Shown here piece after piece: positions 2,044 to 7,975 of a stretch of 16,170 nucleotides of DNA. Location: the NCBI GenBank assembly GCA_964450845.1, contig CAYVGZ010000033.1:1-16170 (forward strand), given 5' to 3'. The position numbers and the translations under genes are program-made. The DNA comes from an uncultured Candidatus Bathyarchaeia archaeon (lineage in GTDB: Archaea > Thermoproteota > Bathyarchaeia > Bathyarchaeales > Bathycorpusculaceae). Position 1 is the first letter of the stretch, and every line of letters starts with the position of its first letter. The notes beneath the pieces are model-generated. The model worked only from the letters and a program-made list of their open reading frames with translations, was not told where the DNA came from and searched no databases.

Positions 2044-3252
2044 TTATGTCCAGAAGCTTTTTGCGCATTCGGTTAAGACATTGTTGTATATGGTCTTTGT
2101 CTGCTGAGCAATTTTGTTCCAATCGTATTTTTCCTGAATTCTCTTGTATGCATTGTTTCTTAACCAGTTCGCATAGCTATCATCAGTCAAAACTTTTGTT
2201 ATTCCCCAAGCCAGCGACTCTGGATTATCTGCGTAAACTTTAACGCCAGTCACATTATGCTCAACTATCTCCGATAAACCGCCTGTATCTGAAACTACAA
2301 TTGGGCTTCTTGCCGCCATCGCCTCAAGAGCAACAATTCCAAATGGTTCGAAAAGGGATGGCACGACAGAAACGTCGGCGCATTTCTGCAGTTTTCTAAG
2401 GGTTTCGTCATCTACGAACCCTGTGAACATTACTTTGTGGCCAAATCCCATGTTTTTTACGATGTTTGAAAGCTGTTCCTTCATGTAACCGTTGCCCACA
2501 ATTATGAACTTTGCATTAACTTTCTCCAAGACCTTCGGGGCGGCGTTAACAAGCACGTGAACTCCCTTCTCATGCACCAATCTTCCTACAAAAAGAATGA
2601 TTTTCTCTTCTGGCAAAGCAAACTTGCCTCTGAAACCGCTTAAATCGTCATTTCCAATTTTTGCGTATGCGTCAGCATCTACGCCGTTCGGAACCATAAC
2701 TAGTTTATCTTTGGGAAGTCCAAAAGCCCATTGGACATGTGAAACCATGTAATCGCTGCAGCATATTACCCTCCACGCCTCGTATGTAAGCCATGCCTCT
2801 GTTTCATGTATCATCCTTTCATAATCAAAATGAATTCCATTTCTACGTCCAATTTCGGTGGAATGCATCGTAGCCAAAAGCGGCTTTCTAAAGACATGCT
2901 TTAGACCAATTCCTGCAGTGGCTACAAGCCAATCATGAGCATGAAAAACATCAACCTTTCCACCTAAACTGTTAACGAGAGCAGCCGCCTCCTTCTGCAT
3001 ATTCACATTCATCAAGTAAACCCATGTTGCAAAATCCGGCGAAGGGTTCTTGTAAGAATCTATCCTAAAAATTTCTACGCCATCAACAATTTCGTGTTGA
3101 GGTGCTCCAGGGAAATCACATGTAACCACATAGACCTTTATGCCGTTTCTCGCCAAACTTTTTGATAAGTAATAAACGTGTGGGGATATTCCGCCAATAA
3201 TTCTTGGTGGAAACTCCCAAGTAAGCATCATAACAGTCAATTCGCGACTCAT
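2044..3252 (-). CDS. GT4 (GT-B retaining) glycosyltransferase, complete; probably glycogen/alpha-glucan-synthase-like
   Basis: WEFPPRIIGG, HAHDW, TMHSTE, VPNGVD, FVGRLVHEKG, EPFGIVALE (E-x7-E) and terminal helix WNKIAQQTKTIY. Substrate is inferred from the GH57 neighbour, not shown by the sequence. Confidence 0.85.
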   Translation of the reverse strand: MSRELTVMMLTWEFPPRIIGGISPHVYYLSKSLARNGIKVYVVTCDFPGAPQHEIVDGVEIFRIDSYKNPSPDFATWVYLMNVNMQKEAAALVNSLGGKVDVFHAHDWLVATAGIGLKHVFRKPLLATMHSTEIGRRNGIHFDYERMIHETEAWLTYEAWRVICCSDYMVSHVQWAFGLPKDKLVMVPNGVDADAYAKIGNDDLSGFRGKFALPEEKIILFVGRLVHEKGVHVLVNAAPKVLEKVNAKFIIVGNGYMKEQLSNIVKNMGFGHKVMFTGFVDDETLRKLQKCADVSVVPSLFEPFGIVALEAMAARSPIVVSDTGGLSEIVEHNVTGVKVYADNPESLAWGITKVLTDDSYANWLRNNAYKRIQEKYDWNKIAQQTKTIYNNVLTECAKSFWT

Positions 3253-3875
3253 TAAGAAGTTTTGCCTCCCGCAACTGTTTGATAAGTTTCTAAAACGTTC
3301 TTTACCCAGTTGGCAGATTTTGGCAGAATCACCTTTACCTTTTCCAGTGGAACCTTGTATAACCGATAAACTTCATCCCGCATCCAATCAGACTTGACAA
3401 TTAGTTTTTCCGCTTCGTACATCCCCAGCCACTCAATGCTTTTGATAGCCATGTTGAATGGTGAATTTGCGCCATGGGAACGATGTTCTTCCAGGCTTTC
3501 CACCGAGTAAATAAACGGTAAGTTAAGCGCCTTTTTCAAAGTGACCGCCGCTGGTATGAAGTGCCAATCATGCGCGTCTATTAGGTCAACCTGCTTGCCT
3601 GTTTTGTAGTAGATGTTGGCTGATGCCCTTTCGATTTCTTGATTTAAAGTGAGAACCCACGTGAGAACGCCAATATGAGTGCGAACTGGATTCGTTACTC
3701 TACAAGTTCTAACACCATCTGGCTCATCATATTCCCCTGTCAAGAAGTCATGATAAGTAACCACACAAGTTTCCACTTTGTTTTTAACAAGTTGCCCAGC
3801 AAGCTCTCTCACGTAGTCTGCAAGTTGTCCAACTATTCTTGGTGGATATTCCCATGAGAGGATTATGGCATGCAT
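3252..3875 (-). CDS. Stand-alone GT4 N-terminal (acceptor-side) domain protein; probable non-catalytic glycosyltransferase homologue
   Basis: WEYPPRIVGQ and DAHDW align with the N-domain of both full GT4s; the C-terminal Rossmann domain (GRL..KG, E-x7-E) is absent. Its TAA stop overlaps the ATG of the downstream GT4 (TAATG at 3254-3250). Confidence 0.8.
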   Translation of the reverse strand: MHAIILSWEYPPRIVGQLADYVRELAGQLVKNKVETCVVTYHDFLTGEYDEPDGVRTCRVTNPVRTHIGVLTWVLTLNQEIERASANIYYKTGKQVDLIDAHDWHFIPAAVTLKKALNLPFIYSVESLEEHRSHGANSPFNMAIKSIEWLGMYEAEKLIVKSDWMRDEVYRLYKVPLEKVKVILPKSANWVKNVLETYQTVAGGKTS

Positions 3876-3884
3876 TATCTTTCA

Positions 3885-4136
3885 CTACGTAAAGAGTGCA
3901 CAGACTTTGATTATTCCGCGTCCAGTCAAGTAGTACCGTTTTTTTCCCTCGTTGTCCATGAAGCTTTCCACAAAGCCTTCAGTTTTATAATTGTCCAAAG
4001 TTTTCTCCACTTCGTTTATGTCGATTTGTAAAACCTGTGCCAGTTCTTCGCTTCTTCTGGCTAGGTCAGAGGCTGTTGCACATAGATTGTGCAATGTTTG
4101 CAAAATTTTTTCTGAAAGTGGTAGCTCTTCCCTCAA
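3885..4136 (-). CDS. Small (83 aa) winged helix-turn-helix protein
   Basis: Start reassigned to the TTG at 4136 because GGGTGA (4147-4142) lies 5 nt upstream; the longer 4211 start only adds an atypical 25-aa leader. Pattern LSEKILQTL...ELAQVLQIDINEVEKTLDNYKTEGFVES...KRYYLTGRG fits a winged-helix fold. Confidence 0.7.
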   Translation of the reverse strand: MREELPLSEKILQTLHNLCATASDLARRSEELAQVLQIDINEVEKTLDNYKTEGFVESFMDNEGKKRYYLTGRGIIKVCALFT

Positions 4137-4207
4137 TGTTTTCACCCTAGTTAGCCTTAAACATAGTTTTACTGAGGTTTTCTTATAAAAGCATGCATAA
4201 GCTCGTT

Positions 4208-5755
4208 TCAAAAGTATTTGGTTGCTGTTTGAATTTGTTTGTTCAATTCGTTGAATCTTTCCTTGGCAGTTTTGATTAGCGATTTTCTAAGTATTTCTCC
4301 CCTCATTTTTGAAGTTCTGATTTTCCTTAATTCTTCTTTTAATGGTTTATCGTAAAGCGAATTTTCTGCCCACTTTTCAAAGTCTCCACGGCTATTGTGA
4401 AATTCTAAGGATTTTATGCTGATTTTTTGAAGAGCTTGTTTGAACCCTTTTAAGCTCCATGCCGTTGTTCCTGTGAAGTGGTTTTCTCCTACACCTGTGT
4501 AGAACAGGAATGGTTCGTTTGAGGCAGTAATTGCAAGTCTCACTCTATTTTCAAAGTCCAATATTGCAGCTTGCTCCGTTACAAAGGCATCTATTGGAGA
4601 GTTGAAAGGGCTAAAATACGAGTGAACCTCGCCTGGCGCTCCGCCTGCAGTGAACATGTAATAGAGGTGATCGCTTGTCTGGAAATACCTCCATGTTTTC
4701 AAAAAATCTTCATCAGCAGTTTCCTTTACAAGTGGTTCGAGCCTCCTTACGTTTGTGTAGTAAGCCCACTGCATAGTATTTCCAAGCCAACAACTTGCAT
4801 CCCTTTCCAAATCTGCCCAAGAAACAGTCCCACCAAGTTCAGGAACATCAATCTCACCCACAGTTTCATACTTTTCTACGACTTCAGAAGGCGTAGCCAT
4901 GTGCAGATGCCACCACTTCAAAATCTCCCTCGGCAAATACCTTAAAAAGTCATGTATGCCCGTTTCCGGCCAATGATGTTCCCCAAAGGTTTCATAATCT
5001 GGGAAGATGTTGATGCAATGACCAGATGTTGTTCCAAGCCAACTTGCATACTTATCCGCTGTTAGAGGCCATTCACTCCACCATCTCGCTGAAAACCTGA
5101 AACCTATATCATCCGTCAACTTATAATTTCTTAATAGCATTTTGATTTTTTTGCAGCCTTTTGGAGTGTAAAGATGGTTTGGCGATTTTCCATGCAGTAT
5201 TCTTTCTACGCCTTCGGTGAAGATTCCTTTGTATCCAAGCTCTTCGATTGTTTTTGCTATGGCATTATTGTAGAGCAATTCTGTGTTCTCGAAAATTCTG
5301 GGCACATAGCCAAGTAAATCCTGCATTGTTTGTTGATGCATTTTCACTTGCTCGATGAATTCTTCTCTTTCAGGATACAGACTTGCCAGCGAATGGTAAT
5401 AGGTTTGGCTTAGAAATTCTACGCATCCCGTTTTTGCAAGTTGTTTGAAAGATTCCAGAAGATCTTTGCTAAACCTTTCACATTGTTCTAAGAAAACGCC
5501 TGAAATGCTGAATGAAACTTTGACTTGCTTTTTCTCTTTCTTGTATTTATCAACGAGGTCAAGCAGTATTTGGTTGGATGGGAAATAACATTTTCTACTT
5601 GCTCTCTTAAAAACCTCTTCGTTTACTGCGTTGTCAAAATAGTAATCAAAAAGGTCTTTCTTTTTTACGCGTTCAAAAGCTTTGTTTTCCCAGAAGAAAT
5701 TCTTTTTTAATCTACAGGGTTGATGAACTTCAAATACGAACACTATGTCTGTCAA
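4208..5755 (-). CDS. Glycoside hydrolase family 57 (alpha-amylase-like) with an extra C-terminal DUF5752-like domain
   Basis: GH57 conserved regions HQP, ENTEL (nucleophile Glu), PDYETFGEH (acid/base Asp) and QTSDHLYYM. An additional ~100 aa C-terminal domain (EPFLFYTG...AWSLKGF...SLEFH...GDFEKW) follows. TTG start with GAGG upstream. Confidence 0.88.
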   Translation of the reverse strand: MTDIVFVFEVHQPCRLKKNFFWENKAFERVKKKDLFDYYFDNAVNEEVFKRASRKCYFPSNQILLDLVDKYKKEKKQVKVSFSISGVFLEQCERFSKDLLESFKQLAKTGCVEFLSQTYYHSLASLYPEREEFIEQVKMHQQTMQDLLGYVPRIFENTELLYNNAIAKTIEELGYKGIFTEGVERILHGKSPNHLYTPKGCKKIKMLLRNYKLTDDIGFRFSARWWSEWPLTADKYASWLGTTSGHCINIFPDYETFGEHHWPETGIHDFLRYLPREILKWWHLHMATPSEVVEKYETVGEIDVPELGGTVSWADLERDASCWLGNTMQWAYYTNVRRLEPLVKETADEDFLKTWRYFQTSDHLYYMFTAGGAPGEVHSYFSPFNSPIDAFVTEQAAILDFENRVRLAITASNEPFLFYTGVGENHFTGTTAWSLKGFKQALQKISIKSLEFHNSRGDFEKWAENSLYDKPLKEELRKIRTSKMRGEILRKSLIKTAKERFNELNKQIQTATKYF

Positions 5756-6676: not shown

Positions 6677-7975
6677 TTGAGAATTGGCTTCTTTGTTTGG
6701 GAGTATCCGCCCGCTCTTGTTGGTGGCTTAGGCACTTATGCAGAGTATATCACTCGTGAATTCGTTTCCATGGGCAGTGACGTAACAGTTTTCACCCTTA
6801 ATCCTGGAAACCTGAAAACCAGAGAAATCATAAAAGGTGTAGAGGTTCATAGACCTCTGATTGCAGATGCTAGCAATATTTTTCCAATGTTCGTCATCGA
6901 TGACTTGAAAAAATGGGGAACAAACATCCGTTTGTTCAACGACATATTCATCTACAACGTATTGAGTGCAACGAAGTTCATAAACAGCACATTGAAAAAG
7001 GAAGGATGTCACTACGACGTTGTCTGCGTGCATGACTGGCTGAGCAGCATAGCAGGGATTATAGTGAAAAACGAGACCAAAGTTCCAGTAGCGTTTCATG
7101 TTCACAGCACTGAATGGGGTAGAAGTGGAGGGCAAGGCTCCGAAGTTGTTTCGTATCTTGAATGGGAAACAGCTCAAAGAGCGGACAAAATAGTAACTGT
7201 AAGCCACGCAATGCAAGAAGACTTGACAAGGCATGGGTGGCTAAAACCAAAAATAAGTGTGGTCTGGAATGGAGTAGACCCTAAACGCTATAATCCGGAG
7301 AACTGTAAGCCTGAAGAAGTTGAAACGATTCGCAACAAGTACGGCGTAAAACCTGACGAAAAAATGCTTCTTTTCCTTGGAAGACTCGCATGGGTAAAAG
7401 GAGTTGGAAACCTAGTTCAAGCAATGCCTATGGTTTTAAAGGAATACCCAAACATTAAACTCGTGATTTTGGGCAAGGGAGAACAACAAAACGACATACT
7501 TGAAACTGCAAGCAGACTTGGAATAAGTGATAAAGTTGCTTGCAAGTTCGAGTTTGTGCCTGAAAAGGAGCGCATTCTGCATTATGCAGCAGCAGATGCT
7601 TGTATTTTCCCATCCACATACGAGCCTTTTGGAATAGTAAGCCTAGAAGCAATGTCAATGGCTAAACCATTAATTGTAGGAGCACAAGGAGTGGTTGGTT
7701 TCAGAGAACAAGTAATCTCATCTGGACCAGACCAAAATGGCGTGCATGTAAATGGCGGAAATTCAGCTGACATTGCTTGGGGCATAAAAGAAGTTTTATG
7801 TGATTCTGAGAGAGCCAAAAAATGGGGAGAAAACGGTAGAAAACGAGTGCTACAATACTTTACGTGGAGGATGGTTGCGGAACAAACTCTGCAAATATAC
7901 GAGATGCTTCAACATCCGCAAGAGCAAGGAGAATATAAAGTAGCAGATTTAATGGAAAAATTGACAAGAACATAA
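6677..7975 (+). CDS. GT4 glycosyltransferase, complete second paralogue; probably glycogen/alpha-glucan-synthase-like
   Basis: WEYPPALVGGLG, VHDW, HVHSTEWGRS, WNGVD, LGRLAWVKG, EPFGIVSLE, FTWRMVAEQTLQIY, plus a ~20 aa C-terminal extension. Confidence 0.85.
   Translation: MRIGFFVWEYPPALVGGLGTYAEYITREFVSMGSDVTVFTLNPGNLKTREIIKGVEVHRPLIADASNIFPMFVIDDLKKWGTNIRLFNDIFIYNVLSATKFINSTLKKEGCHYDVVCVHDWLSSIAGIIVKNETKVPVAFHVHSTEWGRSGGQGSEVVSYLEWETAQRADKIVTVSHAMQEDLTRHGWLKPKISVVWNGVDPKRYNPENCKPEEVETIRNKYGVKPDEKMLLFLGRLAWVKGVGNLVQAMPMVLKEYPNIKLVILGKGEQQNDILETASRLGISDKVACKFEFVPEKERILHYAAADACIFPSTYEPFGIVSLEAMSMAKPLIVGAQGVVGFREQVISSGPDQNGVHVNGGNSADIAWGIKEVLCDSERAKKWGENGRKRVLQYFTWRMVAEQTLQIYEMLQHPQEQGEYKVADLMEKLTRT

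Follow-up and report, generated by a model that had tools for sequence, protein, structure and literature searches.

A short gene in an uncultured Candidatus Bathyarchaeia archaeon encodes what is probably a subunit, itself non-catalytic, of a putative alpha-glucan synthase of the GT4 type. The gene lies on the minus strand at positions 3252 to 3875 of the window, a stretch of DNA of 16,170 nucleotides. Its product, half-GT4, has 207 residues, begins at an ATG, and consists of the N-terminal Rossmann domain (the acceptor side) of a GT4 glycosyltransferase followed by the terminal cross-over helix. Half-GT4 itself is most likely catalytically inert, as judged from its sequence, and its likely binding partner is GT4a, the intact GT4 encoded by the next gene.

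Archaeal glycogen synthesis is largely unexplored. A conserved, catalytically stripped paralogue beside a GT4 suggests that the enzyme may not be a plain homo-oligomer, and GT4a expressed alone may therefore miss its real properties. Half-GT4 is also a natural case of a GT-B protein that was cut down to an acceptor domain plus terminal helix and has persisted over a very long span of evolution, which makes it useful for the study of pseudoenzyme evolution and for GT-B domain engineering.

Architecture of half-GT4

In Pfam, half-GT4 matches N-domain families only: Glyco_transf_4 (PF13439, residues 21-183, E 1.9e-14), Glyco_trans_4_4 and Glyco_transf_5. It has no Pfam match to PF13692 or to Glycos_transf_1 (PF00534), a domain that both neighbouring paralogues, GT4a and GT4b, carry. 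The last strand of the N-domain is only 22 residues from the end of the protein. An earlier sequence-only reading had described the protein as a GT4 N-domain without its donor domain, and the Pfam matches agree with that description.

The same reading had proposed a direct jump from the N-domain to the terminal helix, and three kinds of evidence bear this out. In an alignment of 94 sequences, residue 186 of half-GT4 corresponds to residue 190 of GT4a, and residue 190 corresponds to residue 381. In 53 of 56 full-length GT4s, the best match of a hidden Markov model built from the tail of the half family alone falls within the final 35 residues. Finally, an AlphaFold2 (AF2) model of the monomer, an analysis that the reading had suggested, is predicted with a pLDDT of 96.3 and a pTM of 0.92. 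MshA residues 1-409 are matched by its residues 1-205 (Z 25.1 over 200 aligned positions), and GlgM residues 1-387 by its residues 1-203 (6TVP; Z 25.0, rmsd 2.0, 22% identity); these are its two best structural matches and are tied.

The terminal helix (residues 190-203; 3267 to 3308, minus strand) matches the last helix of GT-B enzymes, which folds against their N-domain. It is modelled with a pLDDT of about 98, and its Tyr198 is nearly invariant. The model also superposes on the N-domain and C-terminal helix of Thermosynechococcus elongatus sucrose-phosphate synthase (TeSPS), and it compares with the engineered TeSPS A-domain 6LDQ at Z 20.4 over 179 of 184 residues. Because the alignment jump, the tail model and the structural superposition agree, half-GT4 is best described as a GT4 from which the whole donor domain has been lost and the terminal helix kept. 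A sequence search of solved structures with half-GT4 gave no match at E 0.01 or better. Against TIGR02149 (glgA_Coryne) it scores 27.4 bits (cut-off 302.4) and covers only model positions 1-175 of 391; it is thus not a member of the GlgM family.

Among the features of a GT-B enzyme, the acceptor Rossmann domain and the C-terminal cross-over helix are present in half-GT4, and the nucleotide-sugar domain with its EX7E motif, an intact GG loop behind strand 1 and the invariant His are absent. Alignment with full-length relatives places the altered GG loop at codons 16-17, which read Gly-Gln (3825 to 3830, minus strand). The change from GG to GQ had been noticed before, and loss of the second Gly extends to the other halves: position 17 is Gly in 59/59 full-length relatives and in 0/34 halves, which have E, Q, D or N instead.

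Codon 126 (3498 to 3500, minus strand), a Glu where the HS(T/L)E motif has its invariant His, requires more care. The replacement of this His by Glu, as first reported, stands within the window, since all 59 full-length relatives have His. It does not stand for the family: the 34 halves include 14 with His, 8 with Glu and 7 with Tyr. On this alignment Glu126 is a clade-specific change and not a trait of the whole half family. The His126 column aligns with His158 of TeSPS, whose H158A mutant is inactive (PMC7264703).

More generally, 49-59 full-length relatives show no variation at Gly17, His126, Gly131 and the Asn185-Gly186 linker, whereas these residues are lost or variable in the halves. Five cleft-facing residues are common to half-GT4 and active enzymes: Glu9, Trp104, Glu129, Arg132 and Glu148. 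These could have a structural role and not a ligand-binding one. Residues conserved specifically in the halves line a single face of helix 70-91 (Thr76, Leu77, Glu80, Arg83 and Tyr90) and also occur in the preceding NPV loop (Asn62-Pro63-Val64) and in helix 139-154.

Conservation, origin and gene neighbourhood

Half orthologues of 203-212 residues with an ATG start are present in 81/81 loci. The dN/dS ratio is 0.096 for half-GT4, 0.063 for GT4a and 0.058 for GH57. Because length is kept in 81 loci and dN/dS is low, half-GT4 can be regarded as selected and not decayed, and the reading as a pseudogene is rejected. The earlier suggestion of a selected short form, for which a dN/dS calculation had been proposed, is thus upheld by purifying selection. 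Loss of catalysis-linked residues and domains on the one hand, and purifying selection on the other, are among the marks of a pseudoenzyme subunit, and both are seen in half-GT4.

The short form is widespread. A search for N-domain-only orthologues of about 200 residues beside GH57 and GT4 genes had also been proposed; such orthologues were found, with the short form conserved. Database matches within the short size range number 3237, and about 30 clusters (50% identity) of 200-222 residues align through the tail. In a phylogenetic tree, 33/35 halves fall in one clade (SH-aLRT 96). Because the halves form one clade, the deletion is ancient and single and not recent in this genome. That a copy of the adjacent GT4a lost the domain recently is rejected, as the halves are an old clade of their own and half-GT4 is only 29% identical to GT4a.

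Half-GT4 is the middle gene of a cassette that recurs across Bathyarchaeia and other classes of the phylum: a small winged-helix (wHTH) gene, then the half, then a full GT4. The wHTH gene (3885 to 4211, minus strand) is an open reading frame of 108 residues. Conservation sets in only around residue 22-26, which probably leaves a true product of about 85 residues. The gene is kept in 80/80 loci and also occurs upstream of the half in distant loci; a relative of the protein has weak MarR/TrmB matches in Pfam.

The third gene, GT4a (2044 to 3252, minus strand), encodes an intact GT4 of 402 residues with Glyco_transf_4 and Glycos_transf_1 domains. Among proteins of solved structure it is nearest in sequence to TeSPS, Pyrococcus abyssi glycogen synthase and GlgM, the last of which matches over its full length. 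It scores 174 bits against TIGR02149 (cut-off 302) and is therefore not a family member. GT4a is a putative alpha-glucan synthase, a reading in line with the genes that surround such cassettes. Archaeal GT4s of this kind, nested among GH57 genes, have been proposed as uncharacterised or missing glycogen synthases (PMC11046441).

Other neighbours are less constant. GH57 (4208 to 5755, minus strand; Glyco_hydro_57, E 1.4e-87), which has a DUF5752-like C-terminal region, is found in most half-GT4 loci and is sometimes missing. Fusions between GH57 branching enzymes and GT4s exist. GT4b (6677 to 7975, plus strand), the second intact GT4 paralogue by Pfam, lies on the divergent strand; it belongs to a separate clade (support 100) and is missing from many otherwise syntenic loci. 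Genes found near halves include GH57, GDE, NDP-sugar pyrophosphorylase and DUF5752.

A GT4 follows the half in 80/80 Bathyarchaeia loci, in 5/6 distant contigs, at locus L118 and in 6/6 loci from other families of the phylum, so the coupling to an intact GT4 that was first seen in this window is general. In the window, the half-GT4 stop and the GT4a start share one base in TAATG, which can be read directly at 3250 to 3254 (minus strand), as had been reported. Across 81 loci the distance from the stop of the half to the next start ranges from -16 to +8 nt and is most commonly -4. Close GT4 relatives also occur without a half, both in sister families and elsewhere; the half is therefore not generally required for GT4 function, a point against the subunit model set out below. 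At one locus without a half, an open reading frame of 103 residues encoding only a CBM53 (a starch-binding module) lies directly upstream of the GT4.

GT4a ends in a C-terminal extension of the E-Y-x4-W type (residues 390-402, ending ...CAKSFWT; 2047 to 2085, minus strand). Counted by eye, a tail of this type is present in 18/22 GT4s that follow a half and in 0/13 GT4s without one, but the count includes only two independent contrasts and the tail may therefore be a clade trait.

A probable partner of GT4a and the alternatives

The observations can be combined into a model. A single ancient loss of the nucleotide-sugar domain from a full-length GT4 would have produced half-GT4, which would then have been inherited within the wHTH, half and GT4 cassette. 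Overlapping stop and start codons would lead to half-GT4 being made together with GT4a. The GlgM homodimer, in which contact is made through three N-domain helices per subunit (PMC11046441), offers a geometry: half-GT4 would most likely bind GT4a N-domain to N-domain, giving an asymmetric pair with one active site. Since cleft residues are kept and donor-contacting ones (the GG-loop Gly, His126 and Gly131) are lost, half-GT4 may hold or present a glucan or acceptor; alternatively, it may tune the activity of GT4a.

Support for a physical link is indirect and comes from natural fusions, from the N-domain contacts of GlgM and from the placement of the half-specific residues on helix 70-91 and near it. 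Two diverged proteins, P0178 (575 aa) and P0272 (585 aa), contain a degenerate half-like domain followed by a full GT4, in the same order as the genes. They share 61% identity, originate from different datasets and each lies in a homologous locus; only two such sequences were found. A fused half and GT4a chain was also folded with AF2, using an alignment of five read-through fusions, halves and C-domain fragments. The natural read-through fusion L041 gave a pTM of 0.64 and lower pLDDT in the cleft loops; on these two scores the model speaks neither for nor against a fixed arrangement. A distance-matrix (mirror-tree) test detected no co-evolution between half and GT4a beyond that common with GH57: the correlation is about 0.77 for each of the pairs half-GT4a, half-GH57 and GT4a-GH57, and the partial correlation is about 0.4-0.45 in each case.

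These last results would also suit a free-standing protein, a lone N-domain that binds glucan, maltooligosaccharide or sugar phosphate and forms no stable complex with GT4a. It could, for instance, carry a primer, associate with granules, or modulate GH57 or the wHTH regulator. The fused chain does not dock confidently, co-evolution is not specific, and the cleft-facing residues that halves have in common with active enzymes do not vary among the halves; the lone CBM53 upstream of a GT4 would be comparable. The stop-start overlap with GT4a has nevertheless been kept over deep divergence, fusions of half and GT4 occur in nature, and a GT4 adjoins the half in nearly every locus, GH57 being sometimes absent. 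This explanation is accordingly considered rather unlikely, though worth keeping in mind.

Two further explanations are much weaker. GT-B enzymes made of two chains are exemplified by Alg13/Alg14 and by bacterial EpsE/EpsF-type pairs. Given such precedents, half-GT4, which is modelled as a complete and well-folded N-domain, might be one chain of a split enzyme whose C-domain is encoded elsewhere. A search with PF00534 found no C-domain-only gene in the genome, which is 93% complete; all 10 matches lie in frames of at least 369 aa, and the reading was dropped on this ground. The donor-contacting Gly17 is never kept in halves and the catalytic His is Glu here, and the separated A and B domains of TeSPS show no activity when mixed (PMC7264703). 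A split enzyme is thus very improbable.

The overlap of the stop with the next start, together with the 5/81 loci in which GT4a shares the frame of the half, could also hint at a pseudogene, at an artefact of gene calling, or at a product that programmed frameshifting or read-through links to GT4a. Both the dN/dS and the retention of length and stop position in 81 loci speak against this, and GT4a starts at a codon of its own and its N-domain is complete. The frame of GT4a relative to the half varies (58, 17 and 6 loci across the three frames); this spread excludes one recoding mechanism, and recoding into a single chain is rejected on that ground. Explanations of this kind are barely credible.

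The subunit model can be extended to a more tentative proposal, which is less likely than not. The pair of half-GT4 and GT4 might be the working form of an uncharacterised archaeal glycogen synthase, an obligate asymmetric heterodimer. Its stripped protomer would provide a second glucan-holding site for priming or processivity, and docking would involve the helical patch peculiar to the halves together with the catalytic chain's E-Y-x4-W tail. Such a form would occur widely in Thermoproteota, organisms with closed genomes among them, and would have a parallel origin in other prokaryotes. Natural half/GT4 pairs number in the hundreds and fused forms number two, so the idea that half-GT4 and GT4 work together is directly testable. 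A literature search for an N-domain-only GT4 partner found nothing relevant, most subscription journals being outside its reach.

Comparison with known systems

The closest structural parallel is artificial. The A-domain construct of TeSPS, itself a GT4, joins residues 27-220 to residues 406-426 (PDB 6LDQ). It is soluble, superposes on the same domain in the complete enzyme, was the sole truncation to crystallise, and is inactive alone or mixed with the B-domain (PMC7264703). Like this construct, half-GT4 is a GT4 N-domain joined straight to the terminal helix. Unlike it, half-GT4 is a natural and ancient gene that adjoins a full GT4 in nearly every locus, and the catalytic residues kept in the laboratory construct of an active enzyme are altered.

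GlgM, the GT4-type alpha-maltose-1-phosphate synthase of Mycobacterium smegmatis (6TVP), forms a homodimer that can serve as a template for the predicted heterodimer of half-GT4 and GT4a. GlgM is complete and active, unlike half-GT4, and to our knowledge no half-size partner of it has been described.

In Alg14/Alg13, as in half-GT4, an N-domain resides on a polypeptide apart from the rest of a GT-B enzyme. The two Alg chains jointly form one active site, whereas the partner of half-GT4 is already a complete GT-B protein.

The GtfA-GtfB O-GlcNAc transferase of Gram-positive bacteria includes a partner, GtfB, that keeps the whole GT-B fold. The system resembles the proposed pair in that a catalytic GT has a paralogue without catalytic function as its partner, which deals with the acceptor; its subunits interact through a conserved DUF1975 domain (PMC6973325). 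Its acceptor is a protein, and it has no homology to half-GT4 beyond the fold class.

STARCH SYNTHASE 5 (SS5) of plants lacks the GT1 subdomain. The Arabidopsis protein is described as a starch synthase that is noncanonical and nonenzymatic; this paralogue of glucan synthases has no catalytic capacity, as appears to be the case for half-GT4, and acts in glucan synthesis through protein contacts (PMC10801857). SS5 is a GT5-type plant protein, has other partners (MRC), and is encoded apart from its synthase. The suggestion that half-GT4 is a pseudoenzyme analogous to SS5 thus survives as a fair functional analogy, across different GT families and without homology, and any resemblance between the two would be convergent.

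A GT4 protein without its donor-binding domain

The 207-residue protein encoded at 3252-3875 on the minus strand, here called the half protein, is a GT4 glycosyltransferase that has undergone clean deletion of the donor-binding domain and has kept the terminal helix. The sequence-only reading had described this jump, and three independent routes bear it out: alignment, a tail profile and structure. The Pfam matches of the protein are Glyco_transf_4 (residues 21-183), Glyco_trans_4_4 and Glyco_transf_5, with nothing beyond N-domain families. The intact enzymes GT4a (402 aa, 2044-3252, minus strand) and GT4b (6677-7975, plus strand) each match an N-domain family and Glycos_transf_1.

In a 94-sequence alignment, the half protein tracks the full-length enzymes to residue 186, which corresponds to GT4a residue 190. 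Beyond that point it aligns with residues 381-394 of GT4a, 400-413 of GT4b and 373-386 of a 387-aa relative. A hidden Markov model built from the tail of the half family only (residues 186-204) was run against 59 full-length relatives. Of these, 56 gave a match, and in 53 the best one fell within 35 residues of the C-terminus; single scores are weak, and the positions agree on a common pattern of about T-x-x-(V/I)-Y-x-x-V.

The AlphaFold2 model of the half protein, made from a 53-row alignment, has a pLDDT of 96.3 and a pTM of 0.92, with residues 190-203 forming a confident helix. VIA-align places model residues 1-205 onto MshA 1-409 with just 200 residues aligned (Z 25.1), and residues 1-203 onto GlgM 1-387 (Z 25.0). 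Because these spans reach the C-termini of MshA and GlgM, the last helix of the half protein occupies the place of the GT-B C-terminal cross-over helix. The model also matches 6LDQ (Z 20.4), a laboratory construct of Thermosynechococcus elongatus sucrose-phosphate synthase (TeSPS) made of residues 27-220 and 406-426, so nature has built the same construct as the laboratory. Alone of three truncations, that construct crystallised, and its structure fits onto the A-domain of intact TeSPS; A and B domains mixed gave zero activity (PMC7264703).

Conserved residues and loss of catalytic residues

Halves and full-length relatives were compared residue by residue in two sets (34 against 59, and 33 against 49). 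At position 17, the second Gly of the GG loop, all full-length proteins have Gly and halves never do, carrying E, Q, D or N instead. At position 126, in the HS(T/L)E motif, His is invariant in full-length proteins; in 34 halves it is His in 14, Glu in 8 and Tyr in 7. Gly131 and the Asn185-Gly186 linker are also lost. Both substitutions reported earlier, GG to GQ and His to Glu, hold, the second with a refinement: Gly17 loss is family-wide in halves, and Glu126 is a trait of the window's clade. Position 126 aligns with TeSPS His158 (index offset set on the EPFG Glu, E331 in the paper and 334 in the index), and the H158A mutant of TeSPS wholly lost activity (PMC7264703).

Other residues are invariant in halves and common to active enzymes: Glu9, Pro12, Trp104, Pro120, Glu129, Arg132, Glu148 and Tyr198. 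In the AlphaFold2 model most of them come directly after strands 1, 4 and 5, and would lie on the cleft side of the Rossmann domain. A further set is conserved specifically in halves (Asp43, Asn62-Pro63-Val64, Ser133, Ala143, Lys145, Gly151 and Tyr173), together with one face of helix 70-91 (Thr76, Leu77, Glu80, Arg83 and Tyr90).

Judged from its sequence, the half protein is predicted to have no transferase activity alone. A split enzyme, with the missing domain supplied by another chain, is ruled out by the lack of a C-domain-only gene in the source genome (Bathyarchaeia, 1.64 Mb, 93% complete), where all 10 PF00534 matches lie in frames of at least 369 aa.

An old gene under selection, for a probable partner of GT4a

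The half gene belongs to a run of four minus-strand genes: GH57 (4208-5755), a small winged-helix (wHTH) protein (3885-4211), the half gene and GT4a. Its stop codon shares a base with the GT4a start, and the TAATG overlap noticed earlier is present at 3250-3254. GT4b is on the opposite strand, as is a NucS-like gene.

A collection of 5.8 billion proteins gave 3237 matches of 113-363 aa, and the best 120 of the 3237 are all 206-209 aa. Close relatives are encoded at 243 species-level genome loci, of which 80 were kept (79 Bathyarchaeia/Bathyarchaeota and one MAG named 'uncultured archaeon'). All 80 have the order wHTH, half, GT4a, nearly all with GH57 before the cassette; the presence of GT4b and of the NucS-like gene varies. 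Across 81 loci the half orthologues are 203-212 aa long and always start with ATG, and the distance from half stop to GT4a start is -16 to +8 nt. The dN/dS of the half gene is 0.096 (Nei-Gojobori, 87 pairs with unsaturated dS); over the same pairs GT4a gives 0.063 and GH57 0.058. These lengths and ratios agree with the earlier proposal that the short form is under selection.

The range extends further. A search without length limits added about 30 clusters of 200-222 aa, 25-48% identical and aligned through the tail, and full-length proteins in that search ceased to align at about residue 185. In 5 of 6 contigs the gene that directly follows a distant half is a full GT4, with neighbours that include GH57, glycogen-debranching enzyme, NDP-sugar pyrophosphorylase, DUF5752 and a small wHTH protein. 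When 301 genomes of the class and 301 of the phylum were searched with profiles, short frames followed by GT4 turned up in many families, five of them outside the class. Some of these genomes are single contigs of 1.2-1.6 Mb, and all six loci taken from these searches have wHTH, half and GT4 in that order, overlapping or abutting. Orthologues of about 200 aa beside GT4 and GH57, which the sequence-only reading had suggested seeking, were found in Bathyarchaeia and beyond the class. A protein atlas holds a 201-aa cluster whose members of known phylum are mostly Methanobacteriota, which is a lead only.

In a tree of N-domains, 33 of the 35 halves group in one clade (SH-aLRT 96). Of the 13 partner GT4s sampled, 12 fall in a different clade, of GT4s (support 95), and the half clade is also apart from the GT4s of sister families in the same taxonomic order, which have the arrangement GH57, GT4 (387 aa), wHTH and no half. 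Loss of the C-domain thus happened once and long ago, and was no recent accident. The possibility that the half gene is a copy of its present neighbour is ruled out, as its identity to GT4a is 29%.

One genome has a half-GT4 pair together with a solo GT4-wHTH set, and some have two pairs; the genomes of either kind are G117 (contig C3, about 97960-99150 and 103620-104830), G187 (contigs C8 and C9) and G038 (loci L111 and L112). Sporadic breaks, which could be assembly errors or occasional decay, occur at L023:2581-3912, L084:6618-7822, G016:C3:58987-59598 and G422:C54:7760-8335, and comprise a GT4b split in three, a GT4a split in two, and two halves with one in-frame stop each. For the winged-helix gene, the annotated TTG start probably lies 5' of the true one, as conservation begins near residues 22-26 and relatives have 75-94 aa. 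That gene accompanies GT4 whether or not a half is present, standing before the half or otherwise after GT4.

The best reading is that the half protein is a non-catalytic partner of GT4a. A physical pair is suggested by the stop-start coupling, by two fusions, by the GlgM dimer and by a tail on GT4. The fusions, P0178 (575 aa, JGI; L126:2258-3985) and P0272 (585 aa, ENA), share 61% identity from end to end and join a degenerate half-like N-terminal domain to a complete GT4. The half-like domain matches half residues 70-166 (E 2e-6), keeping the half-type Lys145 and having Glu at 126. Around the fusions are GH57, a 75-aa ORF and TldD, in a locus homologous to that of the window. In the GlgM homodimer, three N-domain helices per subunit hold the dimer together (PMC11046441). 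GlgM is the closest solved relative, and the half protein retains the entire N-domain and adds its own conserved helical face. Counted by eye, 18 of 22 GT4s located after a half have a C-terminal E-Y-x4-W extension, against 0 of 13 GT4s with no half; in GT4a it forms residues 390-402 (2047-2085, minus strand), past the terminal helix. With just two independent contrasts, this tail could be a docking element or a clade trait. Two results stand on the other side. At L041, where the two genes share a frame, the natural read-through fusion folded as one chain (TGA read as Gly) reached a pTM of 0.64, which favours neither answer. A mirror-tree test gave no specific half-GT4a signal.

Putative alpha-glucan setting and known systems

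The partnership of the half protein with GT4a would belong to a putative alpha-glucan synthesis pathway. This assignment follows from the neighbours, from fusions of GH57 branching enzyme to GT4, and from a 2024 review whose authors suggest that the archaeal GT4 genes lying among GH57 genes encode glycogen synthases yet to be characterised (PMC11046441). In P0159 (929 aa) and P0263 (915 aa), a GH57 and BE_C branching enzyme is fused to a full GT4 of the GT4a family, a Rosetta-stone link from GT4 to alpha-glucan branching.

Further GT4 fusions are NUDIX-GT4 (P0193) and DUF4912-GT4 (P0244). At L119:3612-3923, a 103-aa ORF with only CBM53, a starch-binding module, lies directly 5' of a GT4 without a half, near a CBS protein, a MarR regulator and a GH57 branching enzyme. 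The DUF5752-like C-terminal region of the window's GH57 spans about residues 400-510, and is a separate ORF of 120-197 aa at L104:9067-9633, L105:560-1126, L109:1110-1703 (directly 5' of the half), L124:6649-7200 and L096:2786-3148.

The observation of a half GT4 is confirmed, and its earlier interpretation, a selected pseudoenzyme serving an archaeal glucan synthase, is supported in part. Databases name the protein "glycosyltransferase" or "glycogen(starch) synthase", and literature searches found no description of the half form as combined here. A catalytically dead paralogue that serves a glycosyltransferase is a known kind of protein, with examples in plant SS5 (PMC10801857) and bacterial GtfB (PMC6973325). 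The half form combines four features: a GT4 acceptor domain with its terminal helix, co-translation with a full GT4, a position in putative archaeal alpha-glucan loci, and a broad range within a phylum.
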